DNA of 64,000 bases from assembly GCF_041886205.1 (NCBI RefSeq), contig NZ_CP169029.1; one strand, given 5' to 3'. Below the pieces are notes generated by a model. That model did not search any database. It saw nothing but the letters and a program-made list of their open reading frames with translations, and was not told where the DNA came from. Source of the DNA: Escherichia coli (lineage in GTDB: Bacteria; Pseudomonadota; Gammaproteobacteria; Enterobacterales; Enterobacteriaceae). The position numbers were made by a program, and so were the translations under genes. The stretch's first letter is position 1. Each line of letters begins with the position of its first letter. Below are positions 1-20,710 of this stretch, in pieces.

Positions 1-3000
1 CTCTTCAGCCAGCATACCCTTCACCGAACAGACGACCGTACCCAGATCAACACCGGTTTGGGCTGGCGTCATTTCACCCCCAGCTGGATGTCAGGCATCA
101 ACCTGTTTTTTGACCACGACCTGAGCCGCTATCACTCCCGCGCGGGGCTTGGCGCAGAATACTGGCGTGATTATCTCAAGTTAAGCAGCAACGCTTATAT
201 CGGCCTGACCGGCTGGCGTAGCGCACCAGAATTGGATAATGACTTCGAAGCCCGCCCGGCCAACGGTTGGGATTTACGCGCGGAAGGCTGGTTACCTGCC
301 TGGCCACAACTGGGTGGAAAACTGGTCTATGAACAATACTACGGCGATGAAGTGGCGCTGTTTGACAAGAATGATCGCCAAAGTAATCCCCATGCTATTA
401 CCGCGGGCCTCAACTATACCCCCTTCCCGCTTCTGACTCTCAGTGCGGAACAGCGTCAGGGGAAACAAGGTGAAAATGACACACGTTTTGCCGTTGATCT
501 GACCTGGCAACCCAGCAGTTCAATGCAGAAACAGCTTAACCCGGACGAAGTGGCCGGACGGCGCAGTCTGGTCGGTAGTCGTTATGACCTGATTGATCGC
601 AACAACAACATCGTTCTGGAATACCGCAAGAAAGAGCTGATTCGCCTGAGTCTGCTGGATCCGGTGAAAGGGAAGTCTGGAGAAATAAAACCGCTGGTTT
701 CCTCGCTACAGACCAAATATGCCCTGAAAGGCTATAACATCGAAGCCGCTGCGCTGGAAGCTGCCGGAGGTAAAGTCAGCACTTCTGGAAAAGATATCAC
801 GGTCACGCTGCCAGGTTACCGCTTCACTAACACCCCAGAAACCGATAATACATGGTCGATAGACGTTACCGCCGAGGATGTAAAAGGTAACCTGTCACAT
901 CATGAACAAAGCATGGTAGTCATTCAGGCTCCGACATTAAGCCAGAAAGATTCTCTGTTATCCGTTAATCCGCTAACCGTGGCTGCAGATAAAAAATCGA
1001 CGACCACATTGACCGTTACTGCACACGATTCCGACGGAACCCCGGTGCCGGGGCTTGCGCTGCAAACCCGCAGTGAAGGCGTTCAGGACATCACCCTGTC
1101 TGACTGGACAGATAACGGTGATGGTAGTTACACACAGATGCTGACCGCCGGAACGACATCAGGTTCAGTAACACTGACGCCGCAAATTAACGGTGAGAGT
1201 GCGGTAAAAGAATCTATCGTCGTTAATATCGTCCCTGTTGTCTCATCCCGCGACCATTCATCAATAACAATTGATAACGTATCGTATTATGCCGGAGACG
1301 ACATCAAGGTTAGGGTGGAGCTGAAAGACGATAGCAATCAACCGGTTGCATATCAAAAAGAGGAATTGGTAAAAGCCGTTACTGTCGAAAACAGCAAACC
1401 TGGAGCCACGATTGTCTGGCACGAAGAGCTGCCGGGGGTTTATACCGCGAATTATCCGGCCCATAAGCAAGGGACAGCACTAAGGGCACAACTTAGCCTT
1501 CACAACTGGAATGCTCCACTGCAATCGCATATTTATAACATTGAGGCAAACCAGAATAAGGCTCGCGTCGCCACATTATCAGCGACGAATAATGACGTTT
1601 ACGCTGATAAAAAGACATTTAATACCCTCACTATCAACGTCACTGATGAGAGTGATAATCCCCTGACAAATCATCAGGTCACCTTTAAGAATGAAAAAGG
1701 AAGCGCGGAATTTGTCGAACCGCCGCAGCAAAATACGGATGCATATGGTGTTGCCACAATCAACATGGTAAGTCAGGTTGCGGAAGAAAATACGATTAGC
1801 GCCACGCTGCCAAATGGTTTCTCACAACGGATAATTGCGAAATTTGTTAGCGATTCGAGTACGCCAAAATTCAAACAACTGGTTGCCGATCCAGATACCA
1901 TTATTGCTGGCAACAGCCAGGGCAGCACTCTGACCGCCACCGTCACAGACTTTCATAACAACCCATTAAAAGATATGAAAGTGAATTTTGTGGCACCTGG
2001 TGGCTCGCAACTGGACAACACGACCGCCACAACAGACCAGTACGGTATTGTGCGGGTGCATCTGACCAGTTCAAAAGCTGGTAGCTATTCCGTAGATGCC
2101 TCGCTTGAGGCGGATAAAAATATTCACCAGTCGGTCACGATCACCGTGGTCCCAAACAGGGAACAATCGGTAATGACCTTGAATGCCGGGTCGGGCAGTG
2201 CGGTCGCTAACAATACAAATACCGTTACCCTGACTGCCAGTGTGAAAGATGTTTATGGACACCCATTGCCGGATGAGGATGTGAAATTTACCTTGCCAGC
2301 CTCCATGACCGGGAACTTCACGCTAAGTAGTGAAACCGCCCGCACCGATGCAAACGGCGATGCCATGGTCACATTGCGAGGCACAAAAGCGGGTGAGTTT
2401 ACAGTTACGGCGACGCTGACAAGAAATAATACCATTGCTCATCAGCAAGTTTCTTTTATTGGGGATACAAACAGTGCGCAGCTCCAGCCGCTGACTGCCT
2501 CATTAAATACCATTGTTGCGGGTAACAGTACGGGGAGTACCCTGACGGCAACGATCCTGGACGCTTACCAAAATCCGCTTAAAGACCAGCTGGTCACTTT
2601 CCAGAGTAACGATGTCACTCTAAGCGGAACAGAAGTCACCACCAATACGCTGGGTCAGGCGACGGTAACAATGACCAGCAATATTGCCGGACAACATAAC
2701 GTCGTGGTGAGCCGGAAAGCACAAGCCTCCGATAATAAAACGTTTAGTTTATCAGTGCTCCCGGATGAAAGTTCGGCGAAGGTAATAAGTATAACCGGAG
2801 CCGAAAAAACGATAACGGTTGGCGAAAACATCACGCTACGGATACTCGTCCAGGACGCGTTTAACAATGTAATAGCGGGTCAACGTGTCAGATTAAGTGC
2901 GCAGCCAACAGCTCACATTACGATAGGCGATACGGCTTACACCGATAATAACGGTTATGCGTACGTTCACCTTATTAGCACCCAGTCTGGGGTTTATCAG

Positions 3001-4578
3001 GTGACGGCAACGCTGGACAATAACAGTAGTAGTAAGGTTGACGTGAATGTGGCAAATGGCAAACTCGAGTTAACATCATCGAAGCCAGAAACCACGGTCC
3101 ATAACAGTGAGGGTATTACGCTTACCGCAACGGCGAGAAATGCGCGGGATGAATTGATGCCTGGGCAAATTATCACCTTTAGCGTAACGCCTGAAGGTGC
3201 AACGCTAAGCAATACAGGGGAAGTCCTTACTGACCAGTCTGGTCAGGCCAAAGTGACGCTGACCAGTGACAAAGTGAATGTCTATACCGTTACGGCCACA
3301 ATGGGCAAAGATGTTCCCGTTCAGAGCCAGGTAACGGTTGCGGTTAAGGCAGATGCTAAAACGGCACATGTTGTAAGCGTCGTGGCCTCTCCTGACACCA
3401 TAACCGCCGACGGCGTTGATAGCAGCACCGTCACGTCACGAGTAGAAGATGATTACGGATTCCCGGTTGAAGGTGTCGATGTTAGTTATGCCTTAGACAC
3501 CAAAGGTCGCCCGGTTGTTAATATTCCAACTACGCGTACCGATCAATCCGGGCAAGTCACGGCGACAATAACCAGTACATTGGCAGAAACCTTAACAGTC
3601 AATGTGCAAGTTCCTGGTACAGCCAACCAATCCGCAGCTATTACCTTGATTGCCGGCACGGCGGATGAAAGTAAGTCAATTTTGAAATCCGACGTTGGCA
3701 CTCTGATGGCTGACTACCAGCATAGCGCGAAACTTACGCTAACATTGCAAGACAAGTACGGTAACCCGATAGTGACGTCTGATCATCTGGAATTTGTCCA
3801 GTCAGGTCCCTTCGTGAACTTTCTCAAGTTGAGCGATATTGATTACAGCCAAAGAAATTATGGCGAGTACACCGTGACTGTCACTGGCGGAAAAGAGGGA
3901 ACAGCGACTCTCATTCCCATGCTGAACGGGGTTCATCAGGCAAACTTAAGCGTATCGCTGAATCTCATCCGCTCGATAAAAGAAATGTCCGGTCATGTCA
4001 CTGCAAACAACCATACCTTCTCCACGGCTAAATTCCCGAGCGAAGGTTTTGCAGGAGCGTATTACACACTCAACAATGATAACTTTGAAGCGGGTAAAAC
4101 CGTTGATGATTATATGTTTTCAAGTTCACAGAGTTGGGTGTCTGTCGATGCGTCAGGTAAGGTTTCTTTCACAAATATCGGCGATCAAACGTCAGTCACA
4201 ATAAGCGCTGTTCCCCGACAAGGAGGTACAACCTACCAGACCTTAATTAAGCTGAAAGGCTGGTGGGTGAATAATGGAAATCAAACCAATATCTGGCTAA
4301 CTGCCAATGCGCTCTGTCATGCGAAAAATGATGGATATACTCTTCCTGGCATCACACATTTGACGTCTGGCGAAAACAAACGCACGCAGGGATCGCTATA
4401 TGGTGAATGGGGGAACGTTGCAGCGTTTTCCAGTAATTCGCCATTTACACCAGGTGCTTACTGGACAAATGAATCTGATGATTACAATAGGCACTACTAT
4501 GTGCAGATGCTAACGGGTATGACCGGAAGCGACGCTGATTCCAGCCCCCAACTGACCGCCTGCCGTAAATCACTTTAA
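1..4578 (+). CDS. Inverse autotransporter adhesin (intimin/invasin family), 5-prime partial: end of beta-barrel, about 9-10 Big_1 Ig-like repeats, Cys-containing C-terminal domain
   Basis: Frame is open from base 1 (no stop before the listed TTG at 58). N-terminal stretch AEYWRDYLK...ERPANGWDLR...KLVYEQYYGDEVALF resembles the intimin/invasin barrel end; recurring about 100-aa units with motifs such as STLTATVTD..NPL..V.F; stop at 4576-4578. Confidence 0.8.
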   Translation, partial: LFSQHTLHRTDDRTQINTGLGWRHFTPSWMSGINLFFDHDLSRYHSRAGLGAEYWRDYLKLSSNAYIGLTGWRSAPELDNDFEARPANGWDLRAEGWLPAWPQLGGKLVYEQYYGDEVALFDKNDRQSNPHAITAGLNYTPFPLLTLSAEQRQGKQGENDTRFAVDLTWQPSSSMQKQLNPDEVAGRRSLVGSRYDLIDRNNNIVLEYRKKELIRLSLLDPVKGKSGEIKPLVSSLQTKYALKGYNIEAAALEAAGGKVSTSGKDITVTLPGYRFTNTPETDNTWSIDVTAEDVKGNLSHHEQSMVVIQAPTLSQKDSLLSVNPLTVAADKKSTTTLTVTAHDSDGTPVPGLALQTRSEGVQDITLSDWTDNGDGSYTQMLTAGTTSGSVTLTPQINGESAVKESIVVNIVPVVSSRDHSSITIDNVSYYAGDDIKVRVELKDDSNQPVAYQKEELVKAVTVENSKPGATIVWHEELPGVYTANYPAHKQGTALRAQLSLHNWNAPLQSHIYNIEANQNKARVATLSATNNDVYADKKTFNTLTINVTDESDNPLTNHQVTFKNEKGSAEFVEPPQQNTDAYGVATINMVSQVAEENTISATLPNGFSQRIIAKFVSDSSTPKFKQLVADPDTIIAGNSQGSTLTATVTDFHNNPLKDMKVNFVAPGGSQLDNTTATTDQYGIVRVHLTSSKAGSYSVDASLEADKNIHQSVTITVVPNREQSVMTLNAGSGSAVANNTNTVTLTASVKDVYGHPLPDEDVKFTLPASMTGNFTLSSETARTDANGDAMVTLRGTKAGEFTVTATLTRNNTIAHQQVSFIGDTNSAQLQPLTASLNTIVAGNSTGSTLTATILDAYQNPLKDQLVTFQSNDVTLSGTEVTTNTLGQATVTMTSNIAGQHNVVVSRKAQASDNKTFSLSVLPDESSAKVISITGAEKTITVGENITLRILVQDAFNNVIAGQRVRLSAQPTAHITIGDTAYTDNNGYAYVHLISTQSGVYQVTATLDNNSSSKVDVNVANGKLELTSSKPETTVHNSEGITLTATARNARDELMPGQIITFSVTPEGATLSNTGEVLTDQSGQAKVTLTSDKVNVYTVTATMGKDVPVQSQVTVAVKADAKTAHVVSVVASPDTITADGVDSSTVTSRVEDDYGFPVEGVDVSYALDTKGRPVVNIPTTRTDQSGQVTATITSTLAETLTVNVQVPGTANQSAAITLIAGTADESKSILKSDVGTLMADYQHSAKLTLTLQDKYGNPIVTSDHLEFVQSGPFVNFLKLSDIDYSQRNYGEYTVTVTGGKEGTATLIPMLNGVHQANLSVSLNLIRSIKEMSGHVTANNHTFSTAKFPSEGFAGAYYTLNNDNFEAGKTVDDYMFSSSQSWVSVDASGKVSFTNIGDQTSVTISAVPRQGGTTYQTLIKLKGWWVNNGNQTNIWLTANALCHAKNDGYTLPGITHLTSGENKRTQGSLYGEWGNVAAFSSNSPFTPGAYWTNESDDYNRHYYVQMLTGMTGSDADSSPQLTACRKSL

Positions 4579-10865: not shown

Positions 10866-11639
10866 TCAGGCGTCGACTTTATCCAGCGGCCATGAATCAA
10901 ACAGATAGCCATCAAAATAAATATCGTCAACGTTCGAGAATTCCAGCAGACGTTGCTTAACGTTTTCCAGATGCTGCCACATTGCCAGCTTCGCCGCTCG
11001 GGCATCTTTTTTGATTAACGCGGCGAGGATCTGTTTGTGATCGCCCAACCACTCTTTGCGATACAGGCTGTCATCCAGATGGCTGTGCAACTGGATCCAC
11101 ATTGGATTGTTTTCCCGCCACTGCCAGGACTGACGGAACAGCTCCACCAGCATGCTGTTATGCGTTGCTTCGGCAATAGCGAGATGGAACTGCATGTCAC
11201 CGCTTTCGCTGCTGCCCGGCGCACTGGAAGCCAGTTCACGCTCTTCCAGTTGCAATGCCTGACGCATTTTGACGATATCTTCGCGGGTAGCCTGCAGGGC
11301 GGCAAACTCGGCGATGTTGCTCTCAAGAAGCTGTCGCGCCTGCAACAGCTCAAAAGGACCCGCATCATTGCAAACGTTGGCATCCGGACTGTCTGTGTTG
11401 TGGCTGCCTGAGCTATCAAGAACATAGATACCGGCACCCCGGCGCACTTCCACCAGCCCTTTGATCTCCAGCATGATCAGCGCTTCACGTACCACCGTCC
11501 GCGTGACATCAAGCATTTCTGCAATTTCACGCTCCGGCGGCAGCCGTTCGCCAGGATTGTACGGCGTCTTTATGATCAGATCGCGGATCATCGCCCCGAC
11601 TTCCTGGTAAGGTCTTTGCGCAGAGGTGGCAGATTTCAT
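10866..11639 (-). CDS. uxuR: GntR/FadR-family transcriptional repressor UxuR
   Basis: 257 aa; N-terminal GntR-type HTH (RLPPEREIAEMLDVTRTVVREAL); adjacent to uxuAB. Confidence 0.9.
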   Translation of the reverse strand: MKSATSAQRPYQEVGAMIRDLIIKTPYNPGERLPPEREIAEMLDVTRTVVREALIMLEIKGLVEVRRGAGIYVLDSSGSHNTDSPDANVCNDAGPFELLQARQLLESNIAEFAALQATREDIVKMRQALQLEERELASSAPGSSESGDMQFHLAIAEATHNSMLVELFRQSWQWRENNPMWIQLHSHLDDSLYRKEWLGDHKQILAALIKKDARAAKLAMWQHLENVKQRLLEFSNVDDIYFDGYLFDSWPLDKVDA

Positions 11640-14864: not shown

Positions 14865-14972
14865 ACATAACGTGTCGCCCAAAATAACAATGGATTAACC
14901 TACTCCCCCATTGCATAAGTTGTGACCGACACAACAAAACTGATGTTGTTGCAAAGATTGCTATTTAGTTTT

Positions 14973-14987
14973 GGTATAAAAGGTATA
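14973..14987. promoter_or_regulatory. NanR-operator-like GGTATA direct repeats upstream of nanM
   Basis: ggtataaaaggtata about 50 bp upstream of the nanM start; NanR is known to bind GGTATA repeats. Confidence 0.45.
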
Positions 14988-15036
14988 CAGGCACATGGTG
15001 CGACATTTGAATTCCAGCGATCAGGAGTAATTCACA

Positions 15037-16143
15037 ATGAATAAAACAATAACGGCGCTTGCTATCATGATGGCTTCATTTGCCGCAAACGCGTCTGTAT
15101 TACCGGAAACTCCTGTGCCATTTAAAAGTGGTACCGGAGCAATTGATAACGACACTGTCTACATTGGTTTAGGTAGCACAGGTACGGCATGGTACAAGCT
15201 GGATACACAGGCCAAAGATAAAAAATGGACAGCGTTAGCTGCATTCCCTGGCGGACCAAGAGATCAAGCAACCTCGGCATTTATTGATGGCAATCTGTAT
15301 GTGTTTGGCGGCATTGGCAAAAACAGCGAGGGCTTGACTCAGGTATTTAATGACGTACACAAATACAACCCCAAAACCAATAGTTGGGTTAAATTGATGT
15401 CGCACGCACCGATGGGCATGGCGGGTCATGTAACTTTTGTACACAACGGCAAGGCTTATGTTACTGGCGGTGTTAACCAGAATATCTTCAATGGCTATTT
15501 TGAAGATCTCAACGAGGCTGGAAAAGATTCAACCGCTGTAGATAAAATCAACGCTCACTATTTTGACAAAAAAGCAGAAGATTATTTCTTCAATAAGTTT
15601 CTGTTGTCTTTTGATCCCTCAACACAGCAATGGAGTTACGCTGGCGAATCCCCCTGGTACGGAACGGCTGGTGCGGCGGTTGTGAATAAAGGTGATAAAG
15701 CCTGGCTTATTAATGGCGAAGCCAAACCAGGATTGCGAACGGATGCCGTATTTGAACTTGATTTCACCGGTAATAATTTAAAATGGAATAAGCTTGCTCC
15801 CGTCTCATCACCAGATGGCGTCGCTGGCGGTTTTGCGGGGATAAGCAATGATTCTCTTATATTTGCCGGAGGGGCCGGATTCAAAGGTTCACGAGAAAAT
15901 TACCAGAACGGTAAGAACTATGCGCATGAAGGCCTGAAAAAATCATATAGCGCTGATGTTCATCTTTGGCATAACGGGAAATGGGATAAATCGGGCGAAT
16001 TGTCGCAAGGTCGGGCCTACGGAGTATCATTGCCCTGGAATAATAGTTTATTAATTATTGGCGGTGAAACTGCAGGCGGCAAAGCGGTGACGGATTCAGT
16101 TTTGATCTCTGTGAAGGATAATAAAGTCACAGTACAAAACTAA
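15037..16143 (+). CDS. nanM: N-acetylneuraminate epimerase (Kelch-repeat sialic acid mutarotase), signal peptide present
   Basis: 368 aa with N-terminal signal peptide (MNKTITALAIMMASFAANA) and repeated Kelch-like GG motifs; RBS aggag. Confidence 0.85.
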   Translation: MNKTITALAIMMASFAANASVLPETPVPFKSGTGAIDNDTVYIGLGSTGTAWYKLDTQAKDKKWTALAAFPGGPRDQATSAFIDGNLYVFGGIGKNSEGLTQVFNDVHKYNPKTNSWVKLMSHAPMGMAGHVTFVHNGKAYVTGGVNQNIFNGYFEDLNEAGKDSTAVDKINAHYFDKKAEDYFFNKFLLSFDPSTQQWSYAGESPWYGTAGAAVVNKGDKAWLINGEAKPGLRTDAVFELDFTGNNLKWNKLAPVSSPDGVAGGFAGISNDSLIFAGGAGFKGSRENYQNGKNYAHEGLKKSYSADVHLWHNGKWDKSGELSQGRAYGVSLPWNNSLLIIGGETAGGKAVTDSVLISVKDNKVTVQN

Positions 16144-16207: not shown

Positions 16208-17188
16208 ATGGACGCAATAATATCGCCCGATTATTACTATGTTCTTACCGTTGCTGGTCAGTCTAATGCCATGGCGTATGGCGAAGGACTGCCATTACCG
16301 GACAGGGAAGATGCGCCTCATCCCAGAATTAAACAATTAGCAAGATTTGCGCATACGCATCCCGGAGGCCCGTCATGTCACTTTAACGACATTATTCCAC
16401 TGACTCACTGCCCACACGATGTTCAGGATATGCAGGGTTATCACCATCCTCTGGCAACGAATCATCAAACACAGTACGGCACCGTTGGCCAGGCACTGCA
16501 TATTGCACGGAAATTACTGCCCTTCATTCCTGATAATGCAGGGGTTCTCATCGTTCCATGTTGTCGTGGCGGCTCGGCTTTTATCGCAGGCAGCGAAGGG
16601 ACATATTCAGAACGGCACGGAGCCAGCCATGATGCTTGTCGTTGGGGAACGGATACTCCGCTATACCAGGATTTAGTCAGCAGAACGCGAGCCGCACTGG
16701 CAAAAAATCCGCAGAACAAATTCCTCGGCGTATGCTGGATGCAAGGCGAATTTGACTTAATGACCTGTGACTACTCGTCACACCCTCAACACTTTAATCA
16801 TATGGTTGAAGCCTTTCGTAGGGATCTAAAACAATACCATTCTCAGCTTAATAAAATTACTGACGCGCCGTGGTTTTGCGGCGATACCACCTGGTACTGG
16901 AAAGAAAATTTCCCTCATGCGTATGAAGCTATTTATGGCAATTATCAAAATAATGTTTTAGCTAATATTATTTTCGTCGACTTCCAGCAACAAGGTGAAA
17001 GAGGACTGACGAACGCGCCTGATGAAGACCCGGACGATTTAATCATGGGATATTACGGTTCAGCGTACCGGTCACCGGAGAACTGGACGACGGCACTGCG
17101 AAGCAGTCATTTCAGCGCGGCAGCCCGTCGGGGGATTATTTCTGACAGGTTTGTAGAAGCAATTTTGCAGTTTTGGCGCGAAAGGTGA
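16208..17188 (+). CDS. nanS: 9-O-acetyl-N-acetylneuraminate esterase (SGNH/DUF303 family)
   Basis: 326 aa beginning ...YVLTVAGQSNAMAYGEG (GQSN catalytic-serine motif); directly downstream of nanM. Confidence 0.8.
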   Translation: MDAIISPDYYYVLTVAGQSNAMAYGEGLPLPDREDAPHPRIKQLARFAHTHPGGPSCHFNDIIPLTHCPHDVQDMQGYHHPLATNHQTQYGTVGQALHIARKLLPFIPDNAGVLIVPCCRGGSAFIAGSEGTYSERHGASHDACRWGTDTPLYQDLVSRTRAALAKNPQNKFLGVCWMQGEFDLMTCDYSSHPQHFNHMVEAFRRDLKQYHSQLNKITDAPWFCGDTTWYWKENFPHAYEAIYGNYQNNVLANIIFVDFQQQGERGLTNAPDEDPDDLIMGYYGSAYRSPENWTTALRSSHFSAAARRGIISDRFVEAILQFWRER

Positions 17189-17195
17189 GCGTTCA

Positions 17196-17846
17196 TTAAT
17201 TTGATTTATTCGCATCCATTAGCGCTTTTAACTGCTCCGGCGTAAACGGTGGTTTGCGTCGGTGCAGCATCGCATGGCAATTAGGGCACACAGGAAGCAA
17301 ATCATTAACTGGATCCAGCTGGTAATCCTCTTTAATGGCTGAAAGCGGCACCAGGTGATGCACATGGATAAAGCCTTCAGCGATATCACCATAGATCTTC
17401 ACCAGATCAACGCCGCATACGTTGCATTGGCATCCATGATGTTCGACCGCTTTATCTCGGGCCTTTTTATCGCGTTCATAGCGGTTTACTGTCACCTTTA
17501 TCGCCGCACCTTCAACGTAGGTCCCCTGCGACGGCAGCTCATCCGGGAACAGAACGTCGGCTATGGGAGCCGCAGCGGCTTTATCCTGATGAATATGAAA
17601 TCCCTGCTCTATGAGTAGCTTGACACATTTAGATTTTATTCCGCCGGTGAAATCCGCAGGGGTAAATTGCGTCCCCGTCATCAATGTCGCTGCGATGCCA
17701 GCAATCGCCTTCGAGGGGTAACGTCGGCCATGATATTCAATTTCATACAACCGTGCAGGCTGGAACTGATGAGTTTCTCCCGCATCCCATAAATGAATAG
17801 CTTCGATGATATACCGCCGCGGAAGATGATCGGGGAGTTTATTCAT
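17196..17846 (-). CDS. HNH endonuclease, McrA-like (candidate modification-dependent restriction/defence nuclease)
   Basis: 216 aa; C-terminal HNH/zinc-finger signature CQCNVCG...HVHHLVPLS...NDLLPVCPNCH; N-terminal roughly 120-aa domain of unknown type; convergent with nanS, next to IS1. Confidence 0.7.
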   Translation of the reverse strand: MNKLPDHLPRRYIIEAIHLWDAGETHQFQPARLYEIEYHGRRYPSKAIAGIAATLMTGTQFTPADFTGGIKSKCVKLLIEQGFHIHQDKAAAAPIADVLFPDELPSQGTYVEGAAIKVTVNRYERDKKARDKAVEHHGCQCNVCGVDLVKIYGDIAEGFIHVHHLVPLSAIKEDYQLDPVNDLLPVCPNCHAMLHRRKPPFTPEQLKALMDANKSN

Positions 17847-17992
17847 AGAGAATGTCCTTATACGTTCTCAGAACAAGCAGCAAAAAAACAAATGAGATCA
17901 AAGTAATATATCTTCACTTGCAGGCTTGAACAGCAGAAAATTTGCGAGCATGATCGCAATTATTTCACTGCCAGGGAGGTAATGACTCCAAC

Positions 17993-18496
17993 TTATTGAT
18001 AGTGTTTTATGTTCAGATAATGCCCGATGACTTTGTCATGCAGCTCCACCGATTTTGAGAACGACAGCGACTTCCGTCCCAGCCGTGCCAGGTGCTGTCT
18101 CAGATTCAGGTTATGCCGCTCAATTCGCTGCGTATATCGCTTGCTGATTACGTGCAGCTTTCCCTTCAGGCGGGATTCATACAGCGGCCAGCCATCCGTC
18201 ATCCATATCACCACGTCAAAGGGTGACAGCAGGCTCATAAGACGCCCCAGCGTCGCCATAGTGCGTTCACCGAATACGTGCGCAACAACCGTCTTCCGGA
18301 GCCTGTCATACGCGTAAAACAGCCAGCGCTGGCGCGATTTAGCCCCGACATAGCCCCACTGTTCGTCCATTTCCGCGCAGACGATGACGTCACTGCCCGG
18401 CTGTATGCGCGAGGTTACCGACTGCGGCCTGAGTTTTTTAAATGGCGGAAAATCGTGTTGAGGCCAACGCCCATAATGCGGGCGGTTGCCCGGCAT
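17993..18496 (-). CDS. insB: IS1 transposase InsB reading frame (expressed as InsAB' by -1 frameshift)
   Basis: 167-aa [19 protein letters not shown]...DGWPLYE... overlapping the insA 3-prime end in the -1 frame, as in IS1. Confidence 0.9.
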
Positions 18497-18690
18497 CCAA
18501 CGCCATTCATGGCCATATCAATGATTTTCTGGTGCGTACCGGGTTGAGAAGCGGTGTAAGTGAACTGCAGTTGCCATGTTTTACGGCAGTGAGAGCAGAG
18601 ATAGCGCTGATGTCCGGCGGTGCTTTTGCCGTTACGCACCACCCCGTCAGTAGCTGAACAGGAGGGACAGCTGATAGAAACAGAAGCCAC
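18415..18690 (-). CDS. insA: IS1 protein InsA
   Basis: 91-aa [46 protein letters not shown]..., the IS1 InsA zinc-finger protein. Confidence 0.95.
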
Positions 18691-18745
18691 TGGAGCACCT
18701 CAAAAACACCATCATACACTAAATCAGTAAGTTGGCAGCATCACC

Positions 18746-19057
18746 CAGCAAACGAACCTGGATGATTTGCCGGATAAAGCCAGCATCATTGACGCGTTTT
18801 TTACCTTTGCTCAACGCGAACAGCAACGTGAAGCAGAAGCCTTGATCAAAGAAGAAAATCTCAATGAAGAGGCGGCGAAACGCTATATTCGCACGTCTTT
18901 AAAACGCGAATACGCCACCGAAAATGGCACGGAATTAAACGAGACATTGCCAAAACTCAGTCCGTTAAATCCGCAATATAAGACGAAAAAACAGACGGTT
19001 TTCCAGAAGATCGTCGCGTTTATTGAGAAGTTTAAAGGTGTAGGCGGGCAGATATAA
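18746..19057 (+). pseudogene. 3-prime remnant of a larger gene truncated at its 5-prime end by IS1; encoded tail is charged and helical
   Basis: Reading frame is open from the IS1 boundary with no start context (first listed codon is TTG); peptide ...[37 protein letters not shown]...[15 protein letters not shown]. Confidence 0.6.
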
Positions 19058-19240
19058 TGTATTAATCCGAACCTGATCTGGCAGATAGCTGTCAGATCAG
19101 GACTGAGCTAATACAAATTAATGTCGAACCGAAAATACCAACGCCTGTACCAACATTTTTCGTTTGCGATGGGTTGGAATTGGTTAGCCCTGAGAGAGTT
19201 AAAATAGCGAGAAAGATAGGTAACTAACGGATTTCAGACA

Positions 19241-19268
19241 CAAAAAAAGCCGCTCTTGAGCGGCTCGA
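19241..19268 (-). terminator. Rho-independent terminator of leuX
   Basis: On the minus strand gagccgctcaagagcggc hairpin followed by a T-run immediately 3-prime of the tRNA. Confidence 0.7.
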
Positions 19269-19281
19269 TTTGCATACGGTG

Positions 19282-19366
19282 TGGTGCCGAAGGCCGGACT
19301 CGAACCGGCACGTATTTCTACGGTTGATTTTGAATCAACTGCGTCTACCGATTTCGCCACTTCGGC
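19282..19366 (-). tRNA. leuX: tRNA-Leu (CAA), leuX
   Basis: Reverse complement reads GCCGAAGTGGCGAAATCGGTAGACGCAGTTGATTCAAAATCAACCGTAGAAATACGTGCCGGTTCGAGTCCGGCCTTCGGCACCA with CAA anticodon loop and encoded CCA end. Confidence 0.95.
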
Positions 19367-20581: not shown

Positions 20582-20710
20582 TCCCTTTGCCGGGTGCCTG
20601 TCGCCCGGCACTTAAATCTCTTTGGAAGGCATCTCGCAATCTGCTTAATTTAGCGGTGAAGAGTGCATAGCCGTTGCCTATACTCCAGGCAGGAAACTGG
20701 AGGAAATCTC

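Follow-up and report, generated by a model that had tools for sequence, protein, structure and literature searches.

The leuX locus was analysed within a window of 64,000 nucleotides of Escherichia coli DNA (the whole stretch under study). On the plus strand, the order is nanM, nanS, an HNH endonuclease gene, IS1, the end of HsdR, a palindrome, a spacer, leuX, ahr and yjgR. Coordinates are given in Table 1.

Table 1. Annotated and proposed features from nanM to leuX, in window coordinates.
Feature	Position	Strand	Details
nanM	15037-16143		
nanS	16208-17188		
HNH endonuclease gene	17196-17846	minus	conserved gene at the distal end of the leuX variable region, adjoins nanS; annotated thus in homologous loci
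IS1, 768 bp	17978-18745	minus	99.5% identity to IS1 of W444; InsB matches the NCBIfam IS1 transposase model
hsdR remnant, type IC (EcoR124-family)	18746-19057	plus	last 103 codons and stop codon
58-bp palindrome	19058-19115	no strand	left repeat 19058-19084, ATAG, right repeat 19089-19115; by similarity, paired IS481-family terminal inverted repeats
Putative relic P' arm of a P4-family attL (integrase-upstream region)	19116-19228	minus	~75% identity to the K-12 leuX-intB spacer
Tandem arm-type repeats GTTGGTA	19148-19155 and 19136-19143 (plus-strand coordinates)		12-bp period; aligned with the P4 attP arm repeats
leuX intrinsic terminator	19242-19266	minus	8-bp GC-rich stem 19247-19266, 4-nt loop, then seven T
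leuX, tRNA-Leu(CAA)	19282-19366	minus	ARAGORN; Rfam 59.4 bits

leuX and its attachment core

ARAGORN predicts tRNA-Leu(CAA) as the only tRNA gene of the 64 kb, and the Rfam scan reported no known RNA family beyond tRNA. The gene shows no differences to K-12 leuX and is followed by its stem and seven T. Both tRNA and terminator are thus intact, as stated in the original prediction. The 3'-terminal 20 nt of leuX (19282-19301) are identical to the annotated P4 attP core GAGTCCGGCCTTCGGCACCA, in line with the description of leuX as a P4-type integrase target. The core is intact and should still be usable as a P4 attachment site by P4-type integrases, because in T309.Ta3 a P4-like satellite is integrated at the leuX core, with a window-type terminator at attR. 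This attR (L090, 3040-3180) leads from the terminator into a 20-nt core that lacks 1 nt, and from there into DNA matching the far side of the P4 attP core.

That no integrase gene follows leuX was likewise borne out for the entire 64-kb window. Queries with K-12 IntB, the W444 Int fragment, P4 Int, the O103 leuX Int and FimB (tblastx, tblastn) gave no match at E<=0.01, and tblastn gave none at E<=0.1. The P4-family tyrosine integrase that characterises a P4-type tRNA island is therefore missing at the leuX 3' end. A direct repeat of the leuX 3' end, proposed earlier as a check, is also missing: within the window the 25-mer is unique even when 3 mismatches are allowed, and so are shorter pieces of the 3' end. 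Moreover, attR was sought with 14- to 25-nt leuX 3' pieces in the window, CI5, LH85-a, HCP6S3 and the distal region of K-12, with no result; the K-12 control was empty as well, which leaves this search with weak discriminating power.

On the island side of leuX the ORFs belong to the core genome, which extends over 19 kb there. The island boundary is the 3' end of the tRNA (19281/19282) and not the inverted repeat, where it had been placed originally. With neither integrase nor att repeat found in the window, the remaining island is a non-mobile remnant that cannot move by itself, as anticipated.

Further differences to K-12 are found on both sides of the locus. Between uxuA and nanM (14901-14995), ~12.5 kb of K-12 are missing, comprising most of nanC, fimB, fimE, fimAICDFGH and gntP. 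The K-12 homology extends to 14900, 18 bp upstream of where gntP starts, and returns at 14996 with the last 21 nt of nanC; the 95 bp in between are unmatched filler and contain no IS. The missing fim genes imply a strain without type 1 fimbriae. Between ahr and yjgR (20582-20662), the idnK-idnDOTR operon of K-12 and LH85-a is absent, and the same applies to CI5, M18, O157:H16 Santai and O103 WL1467. At 58-4578 the window carries a large ORF for an intimin/invasin-like inverse autotransporter with many Big_1 and Invasin_D3 repeats. The beta-domain is matched from profile position 98 onwards, which means that the gene extends beyond the left edge of the window.

The hsdR remnant and IS1

The type IC restriction-modification system is incomplete. 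hsdM and hsdS are absent and hsdR is reduced to its last codons (Table 1). In frame 0 the remnant translates into the C-terminus of CI5 HsdR without any difference, and identical DNA is annotated as HsdR by RefSeq in 202 genomes. Among 5,426 complete E. coli genomes, 202 to 318 (about 6%) carry a version with intact hsdMSR, which is likewise devoid of an integrase. The chromosomal hsdR-leuX junction was moreover met at 100% identity in CP061270.1, a 1.2-Mb record labelled as an E. coli plasmid, which is probably a misassigned chromosome fragment.

IS1 is flanked by TGCCAGGGA and CAGCAAACG, that is, no target-site duplication is found. The window joins positions 11326 and 19999 of the CI5 locus (L002), and the ~8.7 kb in between, made up of a PT-restriction fragment, abiE, DUF4942, hsdM, hsdS and most of hsdR, have been replaced by IS1. 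As judged from the alignment with related strains, IS1 evidently took the place of the hsd genes and the neighbouring defence genes. The exact IS1 junction of the window occurs in no complete E. coli genome of the collection. Because IS1 removed hsdM, hsdS and most of hsdR, the window has no intact defence system apart from the HNH gene, and an inert scar of ~1.3 kb is left between nanS and leuX.

The HNH gene itself represents a ~626-bp insertion relative to K-12 (17192-17817), which is located exactly at the 3' end of nanS and is absent from K-12. Beyond it, 17818-17942 are 84% identical to the sequence that directly follows nanS in K-12 (ythB region). M18 (L001, 1-17900) provides a second, independent route of destruction: there, a Mu-like prophage resides inside the same leuX-adjoining hsdR and leaves a ~2.4 kb 3' fragment. 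Across 80 species (loci L008-L087), the type IC HsdR protein is 76-91% identical, from Enterobacter to Legionella and Acinetobacter and including cyanobacterial, Chlorobiaceae and Planctomycetota genomes. Such unusually high conservation suggests a very wide horizontal spread.

The palindrome and the spacer next to leuX

The original prediction described a perfect 9-bp inverted repeat with a 12-nt gap and no T-run between the truncated hsdR and the tRNA. The two halves, cctgatctg (19072-19080) and cagatcagg (19093-19101), are indeed exact reverse complements at this spacing, and no T-run follows on either strand. They are, though, the core of a larger palindrome of 58 bp. Extended, this core forms a 13-bp stem (with one G.T pair) and a 4-nt loop, nested in 27-nt arms which represent the longest inverted repeat of the window. 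By itself the 9-bp repeat does not exceed chance expectation, because the window has 72 pairs of inverted repeats that are 9 nt or longer and spaced by no more than 30 nt. The sequences flanking the palindrome, GATATAA and AATTAAT, show no target-site duplication.

The arms match transposon ends. The exact 27-mer of the right arm is present in 29 viral contigs with differing flanks, and conservation ends precisely at ...GCTAATACA, the last base of the arm. Exact copies at the termini of elements are also found in >1,000 E. coli records, and the right half of the palindrome is also found in many IncF plasmids. At nine loci with unrelated flanks the 27-mer is the right end of a 1.2-kb unit with the matching left end TGTATTAGTCGCGACTTGATCTGACA; four of these nine copies are bordered by 7-bp AT-rich target duplications. 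One such element, in L113 (2509-3709), measures 1,201 bp. The unit encodes a protein of 346 aa that reaches 288 bits with the NCBIfam IS481 transposase model NF033577 (cut-off 224), and homologues of this protein are annotated as IS481 family by RefSeq. Compared to the ends of the 1.2-kb elements, the right arm matches the right end in 26 of 27 nt and the left arm matches in 21 of 27; the left arm departs from the sampled IS ends at 6-7 of its 27 positions, so that none of the sampled elements is its exact parent. Based on these similarities the palindrome is recognisable as two 27-bp terminal inverted repeats (5'-TGT...ACA-3') of an IS481-family insertion sequence, 4 nt apart. The 4 nt between the repeats leave no DDE gene inside, and the window contains no IS481 transposase homologue. 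The palindrome can hence be classified as a non-autonomous relic resembling a miniature inverted-repeat transposable element (MITE), with no transposase gene of its own.

In 318 genomes the 58-bp form occurs as a single copy, with the hsdR-leuX junction as its sole locus; there are no dispersed copies and hence no sign that it moved as a unit. A 77-bp form with perfect arms, consisting of two IS481-family ends and a 23-nt core, exists in other records (L108, 749-825; E. coli EC7072022BGR, L124, 1501-1577). A query with these 77 bp matches 14 places in the EC7072022BGR chromosome, of which the best alone was read and the others may include ends of full-length IS copies. The 77-bp form could be an active MITE, but the two copies examined show no clear target duplication. 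The literature was searched for IS481-derived MITEs of E. coli, and nothing specific emerged.

The palindrome is not restricted to the chromosome. Plasmid homologues of the hsd module (93% identical), such as that of pYLPD4a, have the DNA from the start codon of hsdM to the palindrome in common with the chromosomal type. The plasmid palindrome is longer, with a 27+23+11 architecture, 19 nt more internally and a truncated right arm. The palindrome thus travels with the type IC hsdR restriction-modification module, on plasmids as well. A composite transposon was considered and dropped, as a second IS481-type end is absent from the window, CI5, LH85-a and pYLPD4a.

The hairpin could alternatively have evolved for the type IC hsd operon as an intrinsic terminator or a 3' stabilising stem-loop. 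We regard this as unlikely. It would agree with the start of the palindrome one base past the hsdR stop codon and with the strong RNA fold (-27.8 kcal/mol, z = -6.8). The plasmid hsdR also has a related hairpin behind it, and some hairpin is found behind many other hsdR homologues. However, the terminator scan did not call the palindrome, for which a stem is present and the U-tract is missing, and no U-tract follows the pYLPD4a-type plasmid palindrome either. A canonical terminator for the truncated gene, one of the two roles suggested originally, is not supported by this. Moreover, the hairpin arms are transposon ends present in many unrelated contexts, and in hsdR homologues of P1-like plasmids homology ends at the stop codon and the hairpin is absent. 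Of 80 hsdR loci retrieved from other species, at a protein identity of 77-91%, 77 had enough downstream sequence for the 3' flank to be folded. The hairpin sequence was present in none of these 77, and the idea of a conserved hsdR terminator was given up. On the hsd transcript of strains that retain the whole operon, the palindrome may act as a 3' stem-loop. In the window it is most likely without any function.

The palindrome is separated from leuX by 166 bp. The larger part of this spacer is similar to the K-12 leuX-intB spacer (Table 1), the homology to which stops ~25 bp short of the intB ATG. In K-12, W444 and O103 WL1467, related spacers immediately precede integrase genes. BLAST of the spacer against phage genomes yielded tRNA matches only, since the P4 core is too short to score, and P4 was aligned directly instead. 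In this alignment the GTTGGTA repeats fall on the annotated P4 attP arm repeats, ahead of a common TTCGA. A third, inverted arm repeat is present in K-12 just before the start of intB, as in P4; it is missing in the window, where its position is taken by the right transposon end. The alignments demonstrate that the right terminus of the palindrome abuts what appears to be the relic P' arm of a P4-family attL, in which two of three putative integrase arm-binding repeats are kept and from which the integrase gene and the third repeat are missing. No genome was found in which a window-type arm is still attached to an integrase. The probable integrase-site remnant in the spacer had been missed in the original prediction.

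The second role suggested originally, a remnant of a recombination site, stands insofar as the repeats are ends for a transposase of the IS481 family. It fails for an integrase. That the repeat is an attL or attR remnant dating from the excision or decay of such an island of P4 type would fit its place beside a classic P4 target and at the junction of two modules. Yet it is dissimilar to the leuX 3' end and the P4 core, the same structure is found on plasmids without leuX, and the P4-type arm repeats sit outside the palindrome (19136-19155), all of which makes such an origin very improbable. Least credible of all is a chance inverted repeat with neither history nor function. Its sole support is that 9-bp repeats are common in the window; against it, the extended arms are the longest inverted repeat there, and exact copies of the right arm mark the ends of elements in the viral contigs and E. 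coli records.

Proposed history and known systems

Taken together, we consider it likely that the palindrome is a relic of IS481-family ends behind hsdR which abuts a relic P4-family arm, and that the integrase and then the hsd genes were lost by adjacent deletions. In an adjacent deletion, which is classical for IS1, the IS end is joined to new DNA with no target duplication and the intervening genes are lost. A P4-type island would formerly have occupied leuX. The transposon end downstream of hsdR would then have attacked the AT-rich target AATTAAT (19116-19122), ~25 bp upstream of int, and the resulting adjacent deletion would have removed int with no target duplication being produced. We infer this event at the end of the palindrome because its join to AATTAAT shows no duplication, the signature of an adjacent deletion. 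A later adjacent deletion mediated by IS1 would have taken most of the restriction system.

The module junction is accordingly best placed at 19115/19116. A junction at 19101/19102 with a fortuitous outer 7-bp stem had been considered and was replaced once the conservation up to the last base of the arm emerged. HCP6S3_I1 has a different integrase-less junction, ~12 bp away from that of the window. The two are, by their positions, probably independent events, and a single identical breakpoint for the three integrase-less or integrase-bearing configurations was dropped on account of this distance.

A more far-reaching idea is that paired IS481-family ends are active non-autonomous elements mobilised in trans, whose one-ended attacks bring about the exchange of modules and the loss of integrases at the leuX hotspot. 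If true, this would offer a mechanism for the turnover of hotspot #37, most islands of which have no recognisable mobile element. We hold it to be quite improbable. As to the preferred history of end relic and adjacent deletions, the sole new detail is the unannotated palindrome, which is to all appearance a transposon-end scar abutting a fossil integrase-binding arm of ~110 bp. Scar and arm together would explain the loss of both integrase and restriction system at this site. The locus is a small, concrete example of how islands of a defence hotspot can become integrase-less via successive IS-mediated deletions, with little import beyond annotation.

Compared with the KpLE2/intB island of K-12 and with satellite phage P4, the window shares the identical 20-nt leuX core, a homologous spacer of ~75% identity and putative tandem arm-type repeats in the same position as those of P4. 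In contrast, int, attR and the third (inverted) arm repeat are absent from it. The arm repeats read GTTGGTA in the window and GGGGGCAT in P4, and this difference implies a different cognate integrase, now absent.

With IS481-family insertion sequences and MITEs, the palindrome has in common the 27-bp TGT...ACA repeats, which match transposase-bearing 1.2-kb elements, and the repeat-only form of 77 bp in other genomes. It is unlike them in the 4-nt gap, the missing transposase gene and target duplication and the single locus. The pattern of an IS1-type adjacent deletion is seen at 17978-18745 and would apply by analogy to the right end of the palindrome; unlike the classical case, the events in the window are deduced by comparison with CI5, LH85-a and K-12.

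The locus corresponds to the leuX-anchored E. coli defence hotspot #37 (Hochhauser et al. 2023, PMC10121019; EcoSal Plus 2025 review, PMC12707154). Among occupied cases of this hotspot, 68% are without a detectable mobile element, and its content includes type IC restriction-modification (4% of genomes), AbiEii and PT-related defence (PMC10121019, PMC12707154). In our comparison, LH85-a carries McrBC and an intact PT-dependent nuclease in addition at its leuX locus. Other strains carry SNF2 or HNH/AAA genes after leuX, and the adjoining 3 kb that were inspected contain no integrase. The absence of an integrase is thus common at this hotspot, already published and not anomalous. The window shares the chromosomal site from ahr/leuX to the nan genes with hotspot #37 and differs by being a scar, in which a lone HNH endonuclease gene is left of the defence content. 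It is an ordinary decayed remnant of a well-known E. coli gene-exchange hotspot.
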